From: a virus | UHGV virus genome: UHGV-1836508 | Direction: 5' to 3' (one strand) | DNA: 41,013 nucleotides | In this document: one piece after another, positions 21,935 to 36,308 of the stretch | Layout: every line of letters starts with the position of its first letter | How positions within the stretch are numbered: the first letter of the stretch is position 1 | Notes under the pieces: generated by a model | Databases searched by the model: none | Told to the model about the DNA's origin: nothing | The model's input: only the letters and a program-made list of their open reading frames with translations | Translations under genes and position numbers: made by a program

Positions 21935-23509
21935 TCACTCGTTCTCTTGAGTAGATGAGTCCCCATTCCCTCGGGGTTGATCTTGCCCGCTTTCTTGGGC
22001 TGCACCACGATCATAAGTAAGTACTGACTTATTTTCAAGGGTATTTAGATCATTTTTTGGAGGAAAATTCAAGAGATCTTTATCAAATTCCTTTTTCATC
22101 GCCTCAGTAATGTTCGGGAAAATCTTCTCAATAAGCATTTCCATCTGGTGACGACGTACAGAGTCCGGTGCCTGAAGTAATGACAGTTTCTCGGCAACAG
22201 AAAATTCATCAGTAAGGCCACGAATATCGAAACTTTCTGGATATGCAATTAAAGAGTGGTCTTCGTCCAGATCTACCCCCATCCATTTCGCAACCAGTAG
22301 CATGATTTGGCGTTCAGCCCTTTCCAGACGCTCTGCTTTTGTGACAAGCAAGCTATTTACACGCTGGAAGTCATACATTTTTGCGGCACCAGATGAATTA
22401 TCGATTCCCTGTGCGTTGTCCTGCTTCGTTCGCTCACCAGCTACACCAACTGAATGGTAGATTTCGTTAATCACCGTCTTAATCGTAGTGATGATCATCT
22501 GAGCTTGTTTCGGGTCTGGTGACAGATAAAACGGCTGGTTTCCACCTTCAGAATCGTAGGTGAAGACTCGCTTTGTGCCCATTTCAAGCACTTTAGTGTG
22601 GTTTTCATCACCAGGTAAAAGCGACTGTACCGGTATAGCCAACTGGCTAAATGTCTGATCCTGAATAATGGCATCAAGGTTTGACAGATAGTTTGCAACC
22701 GCACGATCAAGATAAGCGATATCATCGATCAACGATGGGCTGAAATACGGTGATTCACTTTCTCCAATACAATCAACAGGAAACACAGGAACTACGCCGA
22801 GATTATGCTCACCGCTATCCTCTAAAATTACTTTTGCCTGACGGCGACCTGCTCCACCAGCGCCCTTCTTCACTTCCTCACGGAACAGATACCACTCGTT
22901 TTGTGTCCACAGACGATAACGTTGGTATTCCTGACCTGTAGAAGTAAAAGGATCTGCGTCATCACGAGCGACTTCCACAATTAACGCCCACAACATATTC
23001 CCGTCGTCGTCCCATGCCACATCCAGCATTTGCTGAGGTGAAATCCAGTAGGCGTAGGCGCGAGCATCTTTCTTTTTCTCGTCAGCTACTGACTCAACAT
23101 CACCACTCATCGTGCTATCGACAACAACCCATATGCGACCGTAAATAGACGACTGCAAATCAATAGCGGCCATAAATGAGTCAATAGAGGCATTCTGGCG
23201 AGTCGCACGTTTCCAGAAATTGCGGATCTGCTCTGGTGCCTCTTCGATATTTCTATGAATGTCTTCTTTAAAGAGATATTTGTTGATGAGGTTTACCACC
23301 TCACGAGTGTGGTTGAAGCGATAAGCACGTTCAACTCGCTCCTTAAACTCCTGATCTCCCTCTTTAAAGTAACGAAAGATATTGTCTGTAAACCAACCAC
23401 GCCCGCCAGCGTAAGTGCTGGCGAGGAAGTCCCAATGTTCTTTTTTCTTTTCGTATTCCGGGTGGCGTCGCGCCACCAGATCCTTAATTTGTTTGTCGTT
23501 CAATTCCAT
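21935..23509 (-). CDS. portal protein
   Basis: 524 aa directly downstream of the terminase large subunit; size and position. Confidence 0.8.
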   Translation of the reverse strand: MELNDKQIKDLVARRHPEYEKKKEHWDFLASTYAGGRGWFTDNIFRYFKEGDQEFKERVERAYRFNHTREVVNLINKYLFKEDIHRNIEEAPEQIRNFWKRATRQNASIDSFMAAIDLQSSIYGRIWVVVDSTMSGDVESVADEKKKDARAYAYWISPQQMLDVAWDDDGNMLWALIVEVARDDADPFTSTGQEYQRYRLWTQNEWYLFREEVKKGAGGAGRRQAKVILEDSGEHNLGVVPVFPVDCIGESESPYFSPSLIDDIAYLDRAVANYLSNLDAIIQDQTFSQLAIPVQSLLPGDENHTKVLEMGTKRVFTYDSEGGNQPFYLSPDPKQAQMIITTIKTVINEIYHSVGVAGERTKQDNAQGIDNSSGAAKMYDFQRVNSLLVTKAERLERAERQIMLLVAKWMGVDLDEDHSLIAYPESFDIRGLTDEFSVAEKLSLLQAPDSVRRHQMEMLIEKIFPNITEAMKKEFDKDLLNFPPKNDLNTLENKSVLTYDRGAAQESGQDQPRGNGDSSTQENE

Positions 23510-23535: not shown

Positions 23536-24792
23536 CTATCGAGAACCACCAAGAATAACACGGTTTTTGACTGGATACCTACGATGTACTGGATAGCCCA
23601 ATGCGTCTGCACTATGCTCAATGCCACCTGTCTTATCCATATCTCGTGTTCCAGGCTTGTAGATGACTTTTTCCAGTGAATCAATCAAATGCTTGCACTT
23701 CGGATCGATATACAGCCGGATATCTCCAGATGCGGTCATCAGCATTCGGTTAACAGCATTAACACGATCCGCAATTGGCGGGTGCTTTTTCGAATAATCG
23801 ACACGTAAGAATCCCTTCTCTTTGAATATGTCGACGTCAGACTCCCCGCGAGCATGTTGGCGATAAGCACCTGCCGGATCTGGAAATACCGTTATCTGTG
23901 ATTTCCAGCGCCAGAAGCGTCTCTCAAGCTCATCACAAACCTCTGCCGTGTTAGAGGAAAAGAGCACCAATTCATCAATTGCCCATAGCTCACCATTTGG
24001 CTGAGGTTGCAAAATTACTGAAGACATCGGGTCAATGTTGAAGTCCTGCCCTACCCATATAGGCAACCGAGGGTTGAACTGAAGCGGTTTTACATGCACG
24101 TTACGATCGAACGGGTAGTAAACGCGCCCGGACATGTTCTCAAAGCTCGCCAGGTACTCCTGAGCGAACGATTTCGGGTCCATATCGTTCTTAGCAGCTT
24201 CAATTTCCGCCGTAGGTACAAACGGAGAATCGGCAGTTACAAACTGCCAGCTCTTCCACTGTCCCTTTCTTTGCAGCTCTACGTTCTGGCCTATAGTCCA
24301 CAGTTTGTGAAATTCCGAGAAGCCTTTTGGCGTACCAATGATCAGTGCACCGCCGCGTGTCGATGAAAGAGTAGGTCGTAACACCTTGTACCAGGTGTCA
24401 GCCTTCATATCCTGAAATTCATCAAGCACTACAAAATGCAACGCTACGCCGCGCAGAGTGTCAGGCTTATCAGCACCTTTGAGGGCGATCTCCGAACCGT
24501 TCTTCAACACGATTGTCATCGTGGTGTCGTTCTTTTTCCTAACCCACTTACGAGGCAGAACTTCCTGTAGATCGTCCCACAAAATCTGGCGAGCCATCTG
24601 GTAAGTAGGAGCGACATACCAGACTCTTTGCTTTTTTTCCTTTGCCGCCGCACGAATAATAGTGGAGATCGACAACCGGGATTTTCCCCAGCGTCGACCA
24701 GCACAAACAACTTTAAATCGATGCGGAGACTGGAAGACTTTCATCTGTCCAGAATGCAGTTGCACAAGACTGAGCGAGGACGGGATTGCCAT
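23536..24792 (-). CDS. terminase large subunit
   Basis: Walker A …VVCAGRRWGKSRLS… and Walker B VVLDEFQDM in the N-terminal ATPase half; position before portal. Confidence 0.85.
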   Translation of the reverse strand: MAIPSSLSLVQLHSGQMKVFQSPHRFKVVCAGRRWGKSRLSISTIIRAAAKEKKQRVWYVAPTYQMARQILWDDLQEVLPRKWVRKKNDTTMTIVLKNGSEIALKGADKPDTLRGVALHFVVLDEFQDMKADTWYKVLRPTLSSTRGGALIIGTPKGFSEFHKLWTIGQNVELQRKGQWKSWQFVTADSPFVPTAEIEAAKNDMDPKSFAQEYLASFENMSGRVYYPFDRNVHVKPLQFNPRLPIWVGQDFNIDPMSSVILQPQPNGELWAIDELVLFSSNTAEVCDELERRFWRWKSQITVFPDPAGAYRQHARGESDVDIFKEKGFLRVDYSKKHPPIADRVNAVNRMLMTASGDIRLYIDPKCKHLIDSLEKVIYKPGTRDMDKTGGIEHSADALGYPVHRRYPVKNRVILGGSR

Positions 24793-25424
24793 TATTCGTC
24801 CTCCCCTTCAATTCCATCATCTGTCGCATCAAATTCGCTTAGAGCTTCTTCTTCCAACGTCTCAAGCAATTCGTCATCGATGATTTCAGGCTCGTCGTCT
24901 TCCTGACGTAATTTCGCCACCTGGGAAGGCGTAAGCTCACCAAATACCAGGTTCGGAATTTCTTCCTCGTCATTTTCCGCATGATCCATGCCCAATGCTT
25001 TGGACGAAACTTCAAAGCATTTTGCAAGGGTATTACTGGCTCTCTGTAAGCTCTTGAGAGAATCCTCAATCGCCCCTAAAGGCTTACCCTCACGTTTGGC
25101 CGTAGTGACTTCGACCATCACCATCTGCCCCAACGCATACGCCCAGCCGTCATAACGTGTACGACGTTCTTCTATCTTTTCCGCACGGGCTTTAGCGCGA
25201 AGCTCTGCGTCAGATTTAAGAGACTCACGAACCATCTTCCCAACAGAGTCCGCGCCTTTCTCTAATCCTCGCTTTTTGAAATGTCTGGAGAGTGTTTCAC
25301 GACGAATGCCGTACTCTTCCTCCAGCTTTGAGAGTGTATATTCGCCTGACGTCCATTTGGCTTCAGCTTCGGCCCACTCCGCTGGTGTCAGGCGAGTTTT
25401 TACCTCGTCTTTTTCGACCGTCAT
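24792..25424 (-). CDS. terminase small subunit (putative)
   Basis: 210 aa, HTH-like N-terminus (YTLSKLEEEYGIRRETLSRHFKKRG), acidic C-terminal tail, stop overlaps large-subunit ATG (TAATG). Confidence 0.6.
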   Translation of the reverse strand: MTVEKDEVKTRLTPAEWAEAEAKWTSGEYTLSKLEEEYGIRRETLSRHFKKRGLEKGADSVGKMVRESLKSDAELRAKARAEKIEERRTRYDGWAYALGQMVMVEVTTAKREGKPLGAIEDSLKSLQRASNTLAKCFEVSSKALGMDHAENDEEEIPNLVFGELTPSQVAKLRQEDDEPEIIDDELLETLEEEALSEFDATDDGIEGEDE

Positions 25425-25443
25425 AGATCCCTCTAAAACACAC

Positions 25444-25463
25444 AGAGCGCGTCCATGCGCTCT
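25444..25463 (-). other. leader hairpin immediately upstream of the terminase small subunit RBS
   Basis: AGAGCGC-gtccat-GCGCTCT, 15-20 nt before the SD. Confidence 0.5.
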
Positions 25464-25507
25464 AAAACAACTTGTTTACTGCATCTGCTAACCAACTTGT
25501 TTTCTGG
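25464..25507 (-). promoter_or_regulatory. two copies of the shared palindromic leader element (AAACAAGTTGTTT type) upstream of the terminase genes
   Basis: Plus strand aaaacaacttgttta (25464-25478) and accaacttgttttctgg (25491-25507); same element as in the early-gene leaders. Confidence 0.5.
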
Positions 25508-25549
25508 GGTGTTTAATTAGGTCTGGCATGTCTTACGAAGCCTGCTTCC

Positions 25550-25586
25550 GTATATATTTAATAAGTTACTTATTATTTATATATAC
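25550..25586. promoter_or_regulatory. 37-bp AT-rich nested inverted repeat upstream of the terminase genes
   Basis: gtatatat-tt-aataag-tta-cttatt-att-atatatac; outer arms gtatatat/atatatac and inner arms aataag/cttatt. Confidence 0.5.
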
Positions 25587-25619
25587 AGATGCAGGTCTTT
25601 AAATAAGCTCCCAGACCGA

Positions 25620-25886
25620 TTACATCACCAGTAACTTCGCTTTGGCTCGACCTAAAGTGGTTAACCCAAGAGTCCGGCGGTGATAGCGATTGTCACTGCG
25701 TTGGCGCGTATGCCCTTTCTCCACCAGCCCCTTTTTTATCAGAGCGCGAATTGAGAACTGGATACTTTGCTTGGTTGTCTTGTACGGCAAAACTTCAAGC
25801 AATTCGTCCAGGTCAAGTAGATGACCTCGCTCATAACCGAGATTGAGCGTTTTGATGATGTCCTTTTGTTTATCGGTTAACGTCAT
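25620..25886 (-). CDS. small winged-helix-like DNA-binding protein (putative regulator)
   Basis: 88 aa, basic C-terminus, helix-turn-wing pattern (…QSIQFSIRALIKKGLVEKGHTRQRSDNRYHRRTLGLT…); SD AAGGA 7 nt before the ATG; last gene of the ParB operon. Confidence 0.45.
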   Translation of the reverse strand: MTLTDKQKDIIKTLNLGYERGHLLDLDELLEVLPYKTTKQSIQFSIRALIKKGLVEKGHTRQRSDNRYHRRTLGLTTLGRAKAKLLVM

Positions 25887-25895
25887 GGCAAATCC

Positions 25896-26786
25896 TTATG
25901 CCGGTAAAGCAATTTCTAACGGTTTATCCAAAGGTTGTTTGTCGAATGCCAGCAGTGGCAGCGTGTCAGGCAGTCGACGGCCAAAGTCAGGGTTTCGGTA
26001 CACACCATACAACGGAGACGTAAAGCTCAGGTTGTGAATGTCCTTGAGCAGCTTCACAATGCTGGCCTCGTCCACCAGACTGTCGGCAATGTCCTGAATC
26101 GTCGTGCCACGATTCCGCCCAGCTTTTGCCAGGGAACTGTTCTTATGGTAGTCCGCCACCAAATCGCGCAGCGCACGGCGACGACGAGACTCGCTCATAG
26201 CGAACAACTCTTTGACGATCGCCTCGTTATCACCCGGGTCGGAGCGGAAATGGCGCTGGAACACACGCAGTGCACTTTCATAGCTCTTCGGTCGCTCAGG
26301 GCGGATGAACTTAAACCCTGCTTTCATGGCGAAGGGATTGTATTTGCTCATCGAGGACTGGATCTCAATGATTGGCCGGTCATGCATCCTGCTAACCAGG
26401 TTAATCATTCTATAAGAGACGCCTACGCCACGATACTGAGTATCCACAACTGAGCGACTGATCACCGCAAAGTTGTTATTCACGTACCGACCCCAGTACT
26501 GGTTAGCCACGGTGGTATTAGTGGTTGGTTTCAACTTAGGAAACATGCGGTGGCGAGGTGCCAACAGTAGTTTCGGGTAAGCCATAACCACGACGCCCAC
26601 CAGACGGTCATCAAGTTCGCAGCGATAGTAAGTTGGCGCGAAAGGTTTGCCGTCTGTTTTGTAGTGAAGCGACTTAAGAGCGTGCCAGTCCTCTACAGTT
26701 CCCTTTGTAACAGTCATTCGCTCCAGAAAGTCCAGATGACGCGGAAACTCTTCAGGGCGGTAGCGTTTAATGATGATGTCCGTCAT
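25896..26786 (-). CDS. GNAT-like acyltransferase-fold protein with C-terminal extension
   Basis: GNAT motif A-like QYRGVGVSYRMI preceded by hydrophobic strands, and motif B-like YNPFAMKAGFKFI; about 130 extra C-terminal residues. ATG overlaps the ATPase stop (ATGA). Confidence 0.5.
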   Translation of the reverse strand: MTDIIIKRYRPEEFPRHLDFLERMTVTKGTVEDWHALKSLHYKTDGKPFAPTYYRCELDDRLVGVVVMAYPKLLLAPRHRMFPKLKPTTNTTVANQYWGRYVNNNFAVISRSVVDTQYRGVGVSYRMINLVSRMHDRPIIEIQSSMSKYNPFAMKAGFKFIRPERPKSYESALRVFQRHFRSDPGDNEAIVKELFAMSESRRRRALRDLVADYHKNSSLAKAGRNRGTTIQDIADSLVDEASIVKLLKDIHNLSFTSPLYGVYRNPDFGRRLPDTLPLLAFDKQPLDKPLEIALPA

Positions 26787-27448
26787 GAATGGACCTCATC
26801 ATGACTACCATTGTGATATTCCACCTTCACGCGTTCTTTGTAGTGCTTGGTGATCTGCATATCAGGGCGCAGCGCGTTCTTCAGGTCTTCGTGAGTCGTC
26901 GCCACCATTACCGTCGCACCAACCTTTCGAGCGGCACGCTGGAGGTTAGACGCCACAACCTGAGCGGTTACACGGTCGAGAACAGCGCCGAACTCGTCAG
27001 CAGCCCATACTTTAGCGCCTGACTCAATCAGTTTGGCAATCTTGAGACGATATTTCTGGCCGTCTGACATTTCAGAAGGCTTGCGAACAAACAGATATGC
27101 ATCGTTCAGACCAGCCATAGATAACAACCCAAGCGCATCACTGGTCGTTTTGCCCAACTGATCGATGACGTTAACCTCATTATCGAAGGTAAAATCATCG
27201 ATGGAGGCTACAGACAGCCCTTCATCCTTCATCTGTCGTTGCAACTCGCGCAGCACAACGGATTTGCCGGAACCGGATTGGCCGGTGATGTACACCACAT
27301 CGCCCTGCTTCACTTCCAGCTCCAGATTGTCGTAAAGCGTCCACTCTTTTTCGTCCAGGCCAAGCCCGAACGACTCAGCGATTTCCAACGTGCGCGTGGT
27401 TTTATTTACGCGTGTCTGAAACGATACGTTGATGATGTATTTGCTCAT
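26783..27448 (-). CDS. stand-alone ABC-type ATPase (nucleotide-binding domain only)
   Basis: Walker A GQSGSGKS, ABC signature MSDGQ, Walker B VWAADEF, H-loop TTHED; no transmembrane segment; ATGA overlaps on both sides. Confidence 0.75.
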   Translation of the reverse strand: MSKYIINVSFQTRVNKTTRTLEIAESFGLGLDEKEWTLYDNLELEVKQGDVVYITGQSGSGKSVVLRELQRQMKDEGLSVASIDDFTFDNEVNVIDQLGKTTSDALGLLSMAGLNDAYLFVRKPSEMSDGQKYRLKIAKLIESGAKVWAADEFGAVLDRVTAQVVASNLQRAARKVGATVMVATTHEDLKNALRPDMQITKHYKERVKVEYHNGSHDEVHS

Positions 27449-28113
27449 GCAGCCATCTCCCCGGAAGAGATCTTCTCCGCATATGCCACAAATGCGTCTA
27501 CCCCGCTTTCTCCCGTCATTTCTTCCATATGGGCAAGCAAATCACCAACAACAATGGCAGAGCCAGCAGGGAGCGTTTTAAAGCCCAATACGTCGACAAC
27601 ACGTACTTCTTCCGCTGCAACTTCACGACTGATCTCGGTGTGTTCATCCTTCTGTCGTTTAGTTTCTTCGCCAAGATCGATAACTAGCGAGTCGGTGTCC
27701 ATTTCTTCTGTCATACTGCCAACGAGAACATTCAACTCACGCTCTTCAAAGCCGAAAACCTCAATATCGTCCAGAACAAGCGACTCAAGCTCTTTCTGTA
27801 GCTTAATTGCATCGTAATCAATGCTGGCAAGTCGGTTATCTTCAAGGCGCTTCGCACGAACCTCGTCATCACTCAGATCATCACGAACAATAACCGGTAC
27901 GCGCTCAAGTCCAGCAAAAATTGCAGCCTCACGGCGGCCGTGGCCAGTAATAATTACGTCGTTCTTATCGACCGTAATTGGCTGGTCAAATCCGCGCTTT
28001 TTAATGGCTGCGGCCAAATCTCTGATCTGCTGTTCATCATGCTTTTTGGCATTCATCTCATAGGGAATAAGATCTGCCGGGTCGCGATATACGATTTCAA
28101 ACTTTTTGGTCAT
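27445..28113 (-). CDS. ParB/Srx-fold (ParB N-terminal domain) protein, paralogue 2
   Basis: …VIITGHGRREAAIFAGLERVPVIV… matches the ParB arginine-rich motif; ATG at 28113 overlaps the upstream stop (ATGA). Confidence 0.75.
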   Translation of the reverse strand: MTKKFEIVYRDPADLIPYEMNAKKHDEQQIRDLAAAIKKRGFDQPITVDKNDVIITGHGRREAAIFAGLERVPVIVRDDLSDDEVRAKRLEDNRLASIDYDAIKLQKELESLVLDDIEVFGFEERELNVLVGSMTEEMDTDSLVIDLGEETKRQKDEHTEISREVAAEEVRVVDVLGFKTLPAGSAIVVGDLLAHMEEMTGESGVDAFVAYAEKISSGEMAA

Positions 28114-28811
28114 TACATACGCTCCTTGTAGTAGTCGACCAGCCACACCAGAGCCTCACCAGCGTTCTCCATTTCATTACCGGTGTTAATAGCCTGCTCT
28201 TTGATGATGTTTTTTATGGTTTCTGCAACACGATCTGACGCATCGAAAGTTACTTTGAAGCGCATGGTCTGATGTTCCGCACCCACACGTTCGGTTTTCT
28301 CTCGTTTGTCGGTATCGACAGGCTCATCACTACCACGAGACAACGCCTCCAGTGCTTCAAGGTCGATTGCCGCCTCTTTTGCTAAAACCATCGAGATTTC
28401 GTCGTCATACGGGGCGATTTCAGACAGTTGATAGTCAAGTTCTGACTGAATTTCTTCAATGAAGCGTTGCAATGCGATTTGGTCGTCTTCACCGTATCGC
28501 TCGTTGTCCACCAGTGACATCTGTTTAGCTACGACATCGCTAATTTTGCCCACAGAAAGCACCGGAACCGTTGAAATTCCTTGCTCAATAGCAGCACGCC
28601 AGCGATGTTCACCGCCGAGGATTTCAAAAAATCCATCTTCAAGTTCACGAGCCAAAATTGGCTTAAAAAAGCCCAATTTTTCGATAGAACCTTTCAGTTT
28701 TTCAAAATTCTGCGCACCAACCGAATTGGTGTTCCAGGTATTCGGGCGAAGGTTGGCAACATCAACCTGCAAAATCGTGATTTTTACATCCATTTTATTG
28801 CTACAATCCAC
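28113..28811 (-). CDS. ParB/Srx-fold (ParB N-terminal domain) protein, paralogue 1
   Basis: …EILGGEHRWRAAIEQGISTVPVL… is close to the canonical ParB GERRxRAA box. Start uncertain (GTG 28811 or ATG 28793), both with weak SD. Confidence 0.7.
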   Translation of the reverse strand: MDCSNKMDVKITILQVDVANLRPNTWNTNSVGAQNFEKLKGSIEKLGFFKPILARELEDGFFEILGGEHRWRAAIEQGISTVPVLSVGKISDVVAKQMSLVDNERYGEDDQIALQRFIEEIQSELDYQLSEIAPYDDEISMVLAKEAAIDLEALEALSRGSDEPVDTDKREKTERVGAEHQTMRFKVTFDASDRVAETIKNIIKEQAINTGNEMENAGEALVWLVDYYKERM

Positions 28812-30784: not shown

Positions 30785-31348
30785 AGTTGGTTAAAAGAAT
30801 TATCATTTGTTGACACCACTGGCGCTAAGAAAAATCATTCTTTCTGGAAAGTCAGCGATCCTTCTGATTTTCTTGTTGGTGCTAATGCTGCTTTTGAATT
30901 GCTTAACTTTTATCAACGTTATCCAGAAATGAAACACAGTCCACTCCTGTACAGAATAACAAACGATATGAATAGGTCTGGTTTATTATCAAGTGAGTCA
31001 GCGAAAGGCTTTTTTAGCAAAATTACGCCTCACATATCATTCGATGCAACAAACGAAATTGATTATCTATCCACGAAATCTCAAGAACAATTATCTGTAC
31101 CACCTGAGAAAAAAGAAAGACGAATTGCCAGCATTGAAAATATATCGAAAGAGCTTCGCACAACAACGTTGAGGCTGCTGAACTTTCTTACGCTGCTTAA
31201 TTGGATAGATGATCAAACATTGATTCCATCAACAGATGCGTTGGATAACAGAGTCCTTAGGCTGAACAAAAAATCGCAATTTGGTTTTGTGTTCACCAAA
31301 AAAGGTGAAGATTTAATCAAAAGAAAATATAGATTATTGAATGATTAA
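30782..31348 (+). CDS. hypothetical 188-aa protein (AT-rich accessory gene)
   Basis: SD AAAGGAG 7 nt upstream of the ATG at 30782; the track start at 30749 lacks an SD. Confidence 0.55.
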   Translation: MSWLKELSFVDTTGAKKNHSFWKVSDPSDFLVGANAAFELLNFYQRYPEMKHSPLLYRITNDMNRSGLLSSESAKGFFSKITPHISFDATNEIDYLSTKSQEQLSVPPEKKERRIASIENISKELRTTTLRLLNFLTLLNWIDDQTLIPSTDALDNRVLRLNKKSQFGFVFTKKGEDLIKRKYRLLND

Positions 31349-32635: not shown

Positions 32636-33157
32636 ATGGTTAAAGACATCACCTACGGCATACCGGCTGAAGTCTGGCCGCGAGACTACGAACATGCTGA
32701 AAACATACTTATGTTCTGGCGGAAGAACAACATTCCTGTAAGAGTCACGCTTGAAGACGGTCAGGTGTTTTGCATGTACGTTCAGGGGACAATGCCTTCC
32801 CGCAATAAGCTAGATTTATGCCCGCTTCCATATGATAAAGAAAATCGTATAAGACTCCCACTTGAGCGCATTAGCACAATTGAATCAGGTGTAATCGATG
32901 GCATTGCTCGCGAGTTCAAAGGTAGGCTAACAATACATCCAGACTATGTTGACAATCAGCCATCACGCCGTGACTTTTTTGCGATATGTCGCAAGGCTTA
33001 TCAAAACGACCAATCTATAAGGGTCTACATGACAGACGGTCGTGAAATAGAAGGGGTGTCAAGAGGCGTTGATGCTTGCCAGGTCACTCTTAAATTAGAA
33101 GACGGCAGAAAAATACTTGTTTTCTTCGATTGGGTTGAACGAATCCTTCCATTTTAA
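32636..33157 (+). CDS. hypothetical protein with two tandem Rof/YaeO-like repeats (possible Rho modulator)
   Basis: Internal duplication …VRVTLEDGQVFCMYVQG…RIRLPLERISTIE / …QVTLKLEDGRKILVFFDWVERI resembling the LTLELKDGE…RLDKITSF pattern of Rof; TATAAT at 32602-32607 upstream. Confidence 0.35.
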   Translation: MVKDITYGIPAEVWPRDYEHAENILMFWRKNNIPVRVTLEDGQVFCMYVQGTMPSRNKLDLCPLPYDKENRIRLPLERISTIESGVIDGIAREFKGRLTIHPDYVDNQPSRRDFFAICRKAYQNDQSIRVYMTDGREIEGVSRGVDACQVTLKLEDGRKILVFFDWVERILPF

Positions 33158-35487: not shown

Positions 35488-35508
35488 GATTATTTCCTTA
35501 TCGTAAAT

Positions 35509-35562: not shown

Positions 35563-35662
35563 GTGGAAAGTTGCGGTAGCCGGACGAGAACAGGTGGGTT
35601 TGTCGGTTGCCTGGAGGTAAGAGGTTGGTGTTTTTAGCCTGCGGGAAACAGGATGGTCATTT

Positions 35663-35686
35663 AAGGCCACCAGCATTGGTGGCCTT
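35663..35686 (-). terminator. hairpin (terminator or processing site) after gene B; contains a Chi octamer
   Basis: AAGGCCACCA-gcat-TGGTGGCCTT; near-identical copy at 36134-36157. Confidence 0.45.
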
Positions 35687-35691
35687 AGTCT

Positions 35692-35973
35692 TTAGTGGAG
35701 CAGACCGATGTCGATGGTATCCCCTGAATCATCCACACGGATCATCAGCATGGCGAAGGCGTTTAGTGGATAGCTTGCGTGCCATTCAGGGAAGCGGTCA
35801 TCTCGCATGAAGTCGGCAATGTCGTAAACGCATCCCTCAAAGTGGAAGAATCGCGTGCTTACCTGCTCGTCATAATCCACATGATCCATTTCTTGCTGTT
35901 CTGTTTCCGGCAAGTCCAGCCATGATTCAAGGAATACATTTTGTGCTTTAGGGGTAATGGTGAAATCAGTCAT
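35692..35973 (-). CDS. small strongly acidic early-cassette protein B (93 aa; DNA-mimic-like composition)
   Basis: ATG at 35973 with SD GAGGA (the longer track ORF has no SD). About 22 Asp/Glu against about 5 Lys/Arg. Shares a D(I/A)ADFM(R/D) segment with gene F. Confidence 0.55.
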   Translation of the reverse strand: MTDFTITPKAQNVFLESWLDLPETEQQEMDHVDYDEQVSTRFFHFEGCVYDIADFMRDDRFPEWHASYPLNAFAMLMIRVDDSGDTIDIGLLH

Positions 35974-35992
35974 GAGCATATCCTCACTGCGT

Positions 35993-36024
35993 AAACATGT
36001 TGTTTTCTTGTTGGTGTAATTATC
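35993..36024 (-). promoter_or_regulatory. -10 GATAAT plus conserved leader element for gene B
   Basis: Minus strand GCGATAATtACACCAACAAGAAAACAACATGTTTAC. Confidence 0.5.
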
Positions 36025-36133
36025 GCAGTGTAGATAAGGCATAAAAGAAGTTAATACAGGCTGAATACACAAGAAAGGTTCTGGAAGTTGATAGCCAGGT
36101 TTCAAACTAACCTTCGGTTATTAAAAGTCATTT

Positions 36134-36157
36134 AAGACCACCAATGCTGGTGGCCTT
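36134..36157 (-). terminator. hairpin (terminator or processing site), inverted copy of the 35663 element; contains a Chi octamer
   Basis: AAGACCACCA-atgc-TGGTGGCCTT, followed on the minus strand by a U-rich tract. Confidence 0.45.
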
Positions 36158-36308
36158 AATAATTATCGCCCGATTACGCTAAGGATCTTTTCCTCAACTG
36201 ATTTGTTGTTGCGACTAAACTGCCTTGCGTATCTGATGACAGAAGAGGCGTTTTGCTTTCTGACCATCTCGGCTCTTTCCTTCAGGCGTTTCTTGAAATC
36301 GCCCATAT

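Follow-up and report, generated by a model that had tools for sequence, protein, structure and literature searches.

The subject of this analysis is a non-coding gap that lies directly upstream of the terminase genes in the UHGV virus genome UHGV-1836508, a DNA stretch of 41,013 nucleotides that is referred to here, at its full length, as the window. At the DNA level the window is 99% identical to the Escherichia phages CMS-2020a and Cyrano, 97.7% to PhiR41_1 and about 78% to the Salmonella phage SSU5, and therefore it is regarded as an SSU5-like phage-plasmid. The genes around the gap are all encoded on the minus strand, hence going from upstream to downstream means going from high to low coordinates. 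The gap separates an open reading frame (ORF) of 88 amino acids (aa) from one of 210 aa in the position of the small terminase subunit (TerS). An earlier note on this DNA had described a non-coding region of 195 bp before the TerS gene, and this proved correct (25425-25619); the two repeat copies it placed within 25464-25507 are found at 25465-25477 and 25490-25502, and its GC hairpin 5' of the Shine-Dalgarno sequence at 25443-25464. Because the palindrome and the 13-bp repeats (13-mers) of the gap recur elsewhere in the genome, the gap looks more like a control region than like a unique packaging site. From upstream to downstream, the locus contains the following elements:

25620-25886, minus strand: 88-aa ORF, last gene of the upstream operon (PHROG 900, function not assigned)
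25608-25617, minus strand: left outer box GGTCTGGGAG, mirror of CCAGACC at 25520-25526 (inverted-repeat pair)
25541-25595, no strand: 55-bp palindrome CCTGCATCTGTATATAT-N21-ATATATACGGAAGCAGG, from an inverted-repeat search, a single copy within the window
25520-25526, minus strand: right outer box CCAGACC, from the same inverted-repeat pair
25503-25519, minus strand: TAATTAAACACCCCAGA, a -10-like A/T hexamer plus AGA, putative promoter core suggested by a consensus of 17 modules
25490-25502, no strand: distal 13-mer AAACAAGTTGGTT, operator-like, from a repeat search
25465-25477, no strand: proximal 13-mer AAACAAGTTGTTT (written for the minus strand), operator-like, from a repeat search
25443-25464, minus strand: leader RNA hairpin with the stem GAGCGC/GCGCTC, from a hairpin scan and pair changes in relatives
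25433-25442, minus strand: U-rich tail TGTGTTTTAG after the hairpin, terminator-like in sequence
25428-25434, minus strand: Shine-Dalgarno sequence AGAGGGA of the 210-aa ORF, invariant in alignments
24792-25424, minus strand: 210-aa ORF in the TerS position (PHROG 867, 'DNA binding domain')
23536-24792, minus strand: large terminase subunit (TerL), 418 aa (Pfam Terminase_6N 3e-9, Terminase_3 2e-6; PHROG terminase large subunit)
21935-23509, minus strand: portal-size ORF

Conservation was followed in 51 distinct upstream sequences from relatives, and the identities given are mean pairwise values across 10 lineage representatives. The palindrome (0.90), the proximal 13-mer (0.96), the leader hairpin (0.84) and the tail together with the Shine-Dalgarno sequence (0.94) are far better preserved than the spacers between them (0.47-0.68), and thus the islands of conservation coincide with the three modules of the gap in an otherwise variable spacer. 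The arrangement is also widespread, as 756 plasmid records, Yersinia pestis pMT1 and plasmids of Salmonella among them, were matched by a 900-bp SSU5 query that runs from the right arm of the palindrome across the gap and TerS into the beginning of TerL. An SSU5-like terminase locus is also present on a contig labelled 'MAG: Bacillota bacterium' (JAEWTL010000044.1), which is probably a mis-binned enterobacterial phage-plasmid.

The first module is the palindrome. The earlier note had recorded it as a 37-bp AT-rich inverted repeat, which is present as described (inner arms 25551-25566 and 25568-25583), although its extent was underestimated, since it forms the core of the 55-bp palindrome with 17-nt outer arms (25541-25557 and 25579-25595, 88% complementary), and a further arm pair (25508-25526 / 25611-25629) extends the dyad symmetry to about 120 bp. 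When 136 nt of this region are folded as RNA, a single long hairpin is obtained (-49.2 kcal/mol, z = -7.5) and none of 200 shuffled sequences folds as well; the opposite strand behaves alike. With its approximately 25 pairs and a small internal loop between the 88-aa ORF and TerS, the fold has the length and location that would be expected of an RNase III site of the T7 type, and an Rfam scan returned only sub-threshold microRNA-type matches that are caused by the hairpin shape. The left outer box is kept in the consensus of both the TerS-site copy and copy 3 of the palindrome. The CCCAGAC boxes were considered as iterons and rejected, as 10 are found genome-wide versus 10.7 expected; the motif is not enriched and therefore belongs to the extended palindrome only. 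Similarly, a T4-type late promoter in the left half of the palindrome (TATAAATA) was discarded, its 8 copies in Cyrano including none that marks late genes. The (TA)n tracts within the arms show slippage-type indels of TA/AT units in five near-identical relatives (L009, L014, L035, L041 and L066).

The complete Cyrano genome contains exactly three copies of this palindrome, about 30, 47 and 30 kb apart, and SSU5 has three at the same gene junctions. In Cyrano, copy 1 precedes the TerS-like gene, copy 2 (31159-31211) lies before CYRAN_31 and the helicase/primase genes, and copy 3 (78084-78138) is situated between the Dam methylase gene and CYRAN_80; the copies start 24-25 nt past the upstream stop codon and end 109-133 nt before the next start codon. 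A search of IMG/VR with the right arm returned the same contigs repeatedly, in differing sequence contexts, and about 120 IMG/VR instances of the palindrome could be assigned to these three gene neighbourhoods. The fold energies of copies 2 and 3 are -24 to -35 kcal/mol (z -4.3 to -10.2), and UCUUUU or CUUUUU comes directly after each, hence by sequence they look like strong intrinsic terminators. Within the clade of the SSU5, E. coli and Klebsiella elements the sequence of the arms is conserved and that of the centres differs according to the copy. In the arm alignment across relatives 92% of the cells are paired and 9 of the 17 arm pairs never vary, and covariation in the arms is not above that of shuffles. 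Among the one-sided states U·G predominates at copies 1 and 2, and C·A at copy 3; whether selection acts on the palindrome at the RNA or at the DNA level is left undecided by these states and by the covariation. More distant lineages carry other structures in the same slot: in the Klebsiella michiganensis lineage, whose TerS is 61% identical, it is occupied by an ordinary terminator (GAGC-ACG-GCTC followed by T8), and in the Xenorhabdus lineage by a longer AT-rich palindrome with different GC clamps that is followed by TCTTTT. These replacements suggest that a hairpin at the operon end is a conserved requirement.

The second module consists of the A/T box and the two 13-mers. The proximal 13-mer is unchanged in all relatives apart from its central base, and the distal one has been lost in the Klebsiella lineage by a 25-nt deletion. 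Both are members of a dispersed motif, AAACA-N3-TGTTT. If at most two mismatches are allowed, the window has 19 matches, when 2.3 are expected and none of 100 shuffles reaches 19, and exact copies of the motif number 11 in Cyrano and 14 in SSU5, compared to 0.2-0.3 in shuffled sequences. Ten of the 11 exact copies in Cyrano fall in non-coding DNA, which makes up 12.6% of the genome, and the 13-mer recurs at no fewer than 17 intergenic sites, that is, at least 17. The description of the repeats as operator-like was thus borne out, in that the 13-mer is an over-represented intergenic motif that precedes many genes. Alignment of 17 modules from Cyrano revealed AGA directly upstream of the 13-mer and, about 10 nt before that, an A/T box (TAATTA or GATAAT), which gives the consensus aaTtA.acaa...AGA-AAACAAnTTGTTT. 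Every Cyrano module is oriented like the gene it precedes, from whose start codon it is 4-86 nt away; among these genes are ParA, helicase, CobT, NrdB, TciA and a run of small genes, and the orthologous positions are occupied in SSU5. The terminase gap contains the full module with two 13-mers in tandem. The same short site is therefore found at many transcription units of one replicon, as in a dispersed operator regulon, and the 88-aa protein with its predicted winged helix, a helix-turn-helix (HTH) repressor or an FljA-like protein are candidates for the cognate regulator.

Regarding the last of these, a 173-aa ORF of the window (32636-33157, plus strand) has a Cyrano counterpart of the same length at the equivalent genome position, CYRAN_114, and it was this counterpart that gave, when scanned, a full-length Pfam match to Flag1_repress (FljA, the phase-1 flagellin repressor; 1e-80). 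FljA acts on an mRNA leader, and a protein of this type is an odd cargo or regulator for a phage-plasmid. The run of small genes offers two further observations. The 13-mer sites at 35508, 35993, 36743, 37647, 38132 and 39351 belong to small genes that each stand behind an AGA-AAACAAnnTGTTT module, and several of these modules share longer paralogous upstream DNA (GCCTTAT...GATAAT), which suggests duplicated promoter-gene cassettes. In addition, the annotated start of CYRAN_110 (Cyrano OV696614, 97903-98253, approximately 35684-36034 of the window) precedes a complete 13-mer module, a Shine-Dalgarno sequence and an ATG, and judged from this order the downstream ATG is probably the true start codon.

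The third module, in the leader, comprises the GC hairpin, the U-rich tail and the Shine-Dalgarno sequence, after which the 210-aa ORF starts with its ATG at 25424. The hairpin has 8 pairs, 5 of them G-C, and a loop of 6, as expected of a GC-rich terminator stem. A scan for terminator-like hairpins over 2 kb found 1 versus 2.1 expected, which is not above chance by itself; what makes the hairpin credible is its conservation and the pair changes in relatives. In the six core pairs, 12 distinct sequences contain one compensatory double change from G-C to A-U and several one-sided changes, each of which leaves a G·U pair when read in the TerS sense but would give a C·A mismatch in the complementary strand. 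The hairpin columns are 84% paired, as opposed to 24-53% in slid controls, in this small sample of 12 distinct sequences. The compensatory change and the confinement of G·U to the sense strand indicate that the hairpin is an RNA leader element. The U-rich tail that follows it (UGUGUUUUAG) is conserved in the E. coli, SSU5 and Klebsiella lineages, and in the lineage of the window it is terminator-like as far as its sequence goes. In the K. michiganensis lineage the slot is filled by a hairpin that differs in sequence and has no U-tail after it. A second family of repeated terminator-like hairpins exists elsewhere in the window, where a hairpin with a 12-bp stem, TTAAGGCCACCAGCATTGGTGG(C/T)CTTA, occurs twice on opposite strands about 470 bp apart (35661-35688, plus strand; 36132-36159, minus strand).

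The proteins encoded on the two sides of the gap are relevant to its interpretation. The 210-aa ORF shares base 24792 with TerL, an adjacency expected of a TerS gene, and its AlphaFold model (pLDDT, the predicted local distance difference test score, 76) contains a helix-turn-helix at residues 14-52 and a helical hairpin at 58-143 (helices 58-112 and 116-143), which as a predicted architecture agrees with the usual TerS plan of an N-terminal HTH and a helical oligomerisation core. The Cyrano counterpart is annotated as 'Terminase small subunit'. Sequence searches of Pfam, NCBIfam and the PDB gave no match, hence no curated TerS family, and Foldseek found no significant match for the model, only a weak one to the TerS-like protein 2AO9. 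The identification as small terminase in the earlier note therefore stands on position and predicted architecture, which make it reasonable, but not on a curated family match. TerL has its best PDB match in the ATPase domain of P74-26 TerL (4.7e-18); it matches Terminase_6N, Terminase_3 and PBSX-like families, and its relatives are T5-like, Jersey-like and cluster-D mycobacteriophage terminases. Going upstream from the gap, the 88-aa ORF comes first, then two ABC-ATPase-like ORFs and two ParB_N ORFs. The 88-aa gene precedes the TerS-like gene in all relatives examined, and its AlphaFold model shows three helices and a beta wing with a pLDDT of about 86 over residues 1-55. A Foldseek search with this model yielded no significant match, the weak ones being to the DNA-binding domains of LexA and DtxR (best E-value 0.14). 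The protein is thus a predicted winged-helix DNA-binding protein and a candidate regulator. The two ParB-like proteins match the N-terminal domain of ParB only (Pfam), carry the motifs GGEHRWRAA and GHGRREAA and have acidic C-termini; with the two ABC-ATPase-like proteins they constitute a conserved block (26783-28811, minus strand), an operon that ends at the palindrome and adjoins the terminase genes.

The reading favoured here, with a confidence slightly better than even, is that the gap is an operon junction combined with the late-operon control region of an SSU5-like phage-plasmid. The gap would join two transcription units and control a packaging, morphogenesis and lysis operon of about 28 kb. 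The palindrome, as one of three conserved copies that would mark major operon junctions, would end the upstream operon of two ParB-like genes, two ABC-ATPase-like genes and one winged-helix gene by forming a very stable transcript hairpin; at the TerS site, where it has no U-tract, it would probably be a leaky stop or a processing/stability hairpin. The promoter-like A/T box would come next, followed by two tandem 13-bp palindromic operators of the type that stands before approximately 17-20 other genes, and a putative dimeric phage regulator that binds the 13-mers could coordinate the expression of the terminase operon with the remainder of the lytic programme. Finally, the GC hairpin with its U-rich tail, 12 nt before the ribosome-binding site, may attenuate or stabilise the transcript. 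We infer termination, promoter activity, regulator binding and attenuation at the gap from sequence features, namely the repeats with their observed copy number, positions and conservation, and the RNA-type substitutions of the hairpin. With respect to the proposal of a 'pac or control region', the control half is upheld by the 13-mer motif and the sense-strand RNA hairpin, while the pac half is undemonstrated and not well supported, its main argument being lost with the finding that no single element of the gap is specific to the terminase locus.

Several observations weigh against a junction and control region of this kind. A U-tract is absent after the TerS-site palindrome on both strands (CUUCGUAAG, CUUCGU, in the sense and UCUUUAAAU in the other direction), which makes termination at this site doubtful. 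The arms are conserved by sequence and not by covariation, which exceeds the need of a plain terminator and hints at a sequence-specific factor. A sigma-70 consensus scan found no site in the gap and no enrichment over 16 kb, and promoter activity of the 13-mer module can only be proposed because the module is not canonical sigma-70. The hairpin of the K. michiganensis lineage has no U-tail, hence 'leader hairpin' is a safer term than 'terminator'. The last point comes from the linear database record of SSU5, a virion-derived isolate, which ends with ...ACTTATTA and starts with AATATATACGGAAGCAGG. The break falls at the inner edge of the right arm (window-equivalent 25558/25557), 133 bp before the TerS-like gene. 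The SSU5 palindrome copies share about 13-24 nt with each other, according to the author's reading of the three copies, and this is probably too short to break a long-read assembly.

The same record is the only hint of a DNA end and thereby speaks for the most serious of the rival explanations, that the gap is a packaging site where the terminase cuts concatemers at the palindrome, either as a cos-type fixed end or as a pac start, with the boxes or the 13-mers providing specificity. An arbitrary break would fall within these 55 bp of a 103-kb genome with a chance of about 5e-4, and the joined ends rebuild the palindrome of the circular plasmids with no gap or duplication. Furthermore, the palindrome adjoins the terminase genes and has a dyad symmetry like cosN, the gap is directly upstream of the gene in the TerS position where a pac site is often located, and the combination of a palindrome with tandem 13-mers is unique to the terminase locus. 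On the other hand, the palindrome occurs three times per genome, so it lacks the uniqueness of a cos site and cutting at all copies would fragment the genome, and the 13-mers at about 20 sites are not the site-specific recognition repeats of a pac site. The ends of the SSU5 record bear no overhang signature, neither duplication nor loss. TerL differs in type from the terminases of lambda (GpA) and HK97 and thus falls outside the cos clade, which is no more than suggestive, as a clade does not prove the packaging mode. The groups to which its relatives belong are mostly headful or terminal-repeat packagers, and not lambda- or HK97-type cos phages.

Other records add little to this explanation. 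The Cyrano record starts one base beyond the SSU5 start, but Cyrano is a re-annotation of the plasmid pLF82 that its authors compared with SSU5 (PMC9928086), therefore its start is not independent evidence, and the virion coverage of Cyrano, for which the public LF82 virome run ERR8973296 is named, was indistinguishable from the plasmid background (PMC9928086). PhiR41_1 was deposited as circular with another start. The region has different coordinates in the listed plasmid records of pMT1 and of Salmonella/E. coli, which means that the SSU5 start was not copied from these. No IMG/VR contig ends at the palindrome. In metagenomes three contigs end inside palindromes, one of them at copy 2, and the contig beginning precisely at the arm measures 30,086 bp, which approximates the spacing of copies 1 and 2. 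Assemblies are known to break at repeats, and these contig ends are likely an assembly artefact. One contig of 108.6 kb (IMGVR_UViG_2724679237_000005) ends between the 13-mers, 69 nt before the TerS start codon, which is probably an arbitrary break of a circular assembly. No paper in the searchable literature brings cohesive ends or PhageTerm together with SSU5, and where headful packaging is mentioned, other phages are concerned. A cos site deduced from record starts was consequently not adopted, the Cyrano start being dependent and the SSU5 start being left without explanation. A packaging role is judged unlikely, and it is retained at that level because a repeat-driven assembly break would probably not account for the SSU5 start.

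A little less probable still is that the palindrome is a DNA-level site bound at the three loci by a sequence-specific phage protein, for example the winged-helix or a ParB-like protein. It could then activate or silence from upstream, or function as a lytic origin or a dispersed centromere, comparable to N15 sop or the RK2 KorB operators. Such a role would be consistent with arm sequences that are nearly invariant across lineages and among the three copies, whose centres are copy-specific, and with the symmetric boxes GGTCTGGGAG / CCCAGACC that flank copies 1 and 3. Moreover, copy 2 lies just past the parA operon and before the helicase-primase genes, and a gene for a predicted DNA-binding protein is found immediately upstream of copy 1 in all lineages examined. 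However, the distance from the palindrome to the promoter-like box that follows is not constant (19-40 nt), the winged-helix gene persists in the K. michiganensis lineage even though an ordinary terminator replaces the palindrome there, and in Pfam the ParB-like proteins match no more of ParB than its N-terminal domain.

It is far less probable that SSU5-type phages make a chromosome end inside the palindrome, to which the SSU5 record would point, and that the other copies are further structure-specific nicking or cleavage sites. In this case the nicking might be performed by the terminase or by ParB-like nuclease-domain proteins encoded just upstream, in analogy with the DNA interruptions of T5, and if this were true, the palindrome family would be a packaging or DNA-processing signal and not a transcription signal. 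That the gap contains nothing but chance structure in an AT-rich spacer can be practically dismissed, for even if one terminator-like hairpin in 2 kb is within chance expectation, this is contradicted by fold z values of -6 to -10, the conservation islands, the motif enrichment and the recurrence at syntenic sites in hundreds of replicons (the 756 plasmid records matched by the 900-bp query).

SSU5-like phage-plasmids are very common in Enterobacteriaceae, and some of these elements carry antibiotic-resistance genes (PMC9600943). The searchable literature yielded no description of their lytic regulation or packaging mode, and the motif sequences of the gap are found in no paper there; the kinds of element are thus familiar, while the particular system appears to be undescribed. 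An operator family of about 20 sites and a junction palindrome in three copies offer handles for finding the master regulator and predicting the operon structure, as well as for engineering or disabling induction and for testing whether packaging starts at the gap. The locus also calls for caution, because structured DNA beside terminase genes is not automatically a pac or cos site.

Among known systems, the intrinsic terminators, the RNase III hairpins of T7 and the repetitive extragenic palindromic (REP) sequences and bacterial interspersed mosaic elements (BIME) resemble the palindrome in being long, interrupted and very stable intercistronic hairpins, and the U-tracts after two of the three copies and the presence of a related hairpin family within one genome add to this likeness. 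Compared to a typical terminator, however, the stem is far longer and more AT-rich, and its sequence is conserved beyond structural need. The centromere sites of N15 are similar in that a few palindrome copies are located at lytic-gene regulatory regions of a phage-plasmid, but those are short SopB-binding repeats with a demonstrated partition function, whereas the palindrome is linked to ParA only by the position of copy 2 downstream of parA.

Like the cosQ-cosN-cosB of lambda and the pacL-pacC-pacR of SPP1, the gap places a dyad element and repeated boxes directly upstream of TerS, and one virion-derived record, that of SSU5, starts inside the dyad element. It differs from them in that the symmetric element occurs three times and the repeats about 20 times per genome, and in that TerL belongs to neither the lambda GpA nor the HK97 type. 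The late control of lambda (pR'-tR'-Q) offers another parallel, since a hairpin and a U-rich tail come no more than about 70 nt after a promoter-like module, the hairpin stands just before the first gene of the late operon and a small regulatory gene lies immediately upstream. In contrast to lambda, a homologue of Q was not identified, one lineage lacks the U-tail and the promoter of the gap is putative; in addition, the pR'-tR' unit of lambda precedes the lysis genes, which are themselves separated from Nu1 by cos.

Among known systems, the logic of the 13-mer family is closest to that of P1, with its scattered C1 operators, and of RK2, with its 13-bp KorB operators (OB), a likeness that rests on established knowledge and on the 13-mer distribution found here. 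In both, as in the SSU5-like elements, one short site is present at many transcription units of a plasmid-borne replicon, and the types of gene behind the sites are shared, including partition, replication and late genes. The RK2 sites are 13-bp palindromes just as the 13-mer is, while the P1 C1 operator is asymmetric. What sets the 13-mer apart from both networks is its sequence, AAACA-N3-TGTTT, its constant location close upstream of start codons with a flank shared on one side only, and a repression that is presumed here.

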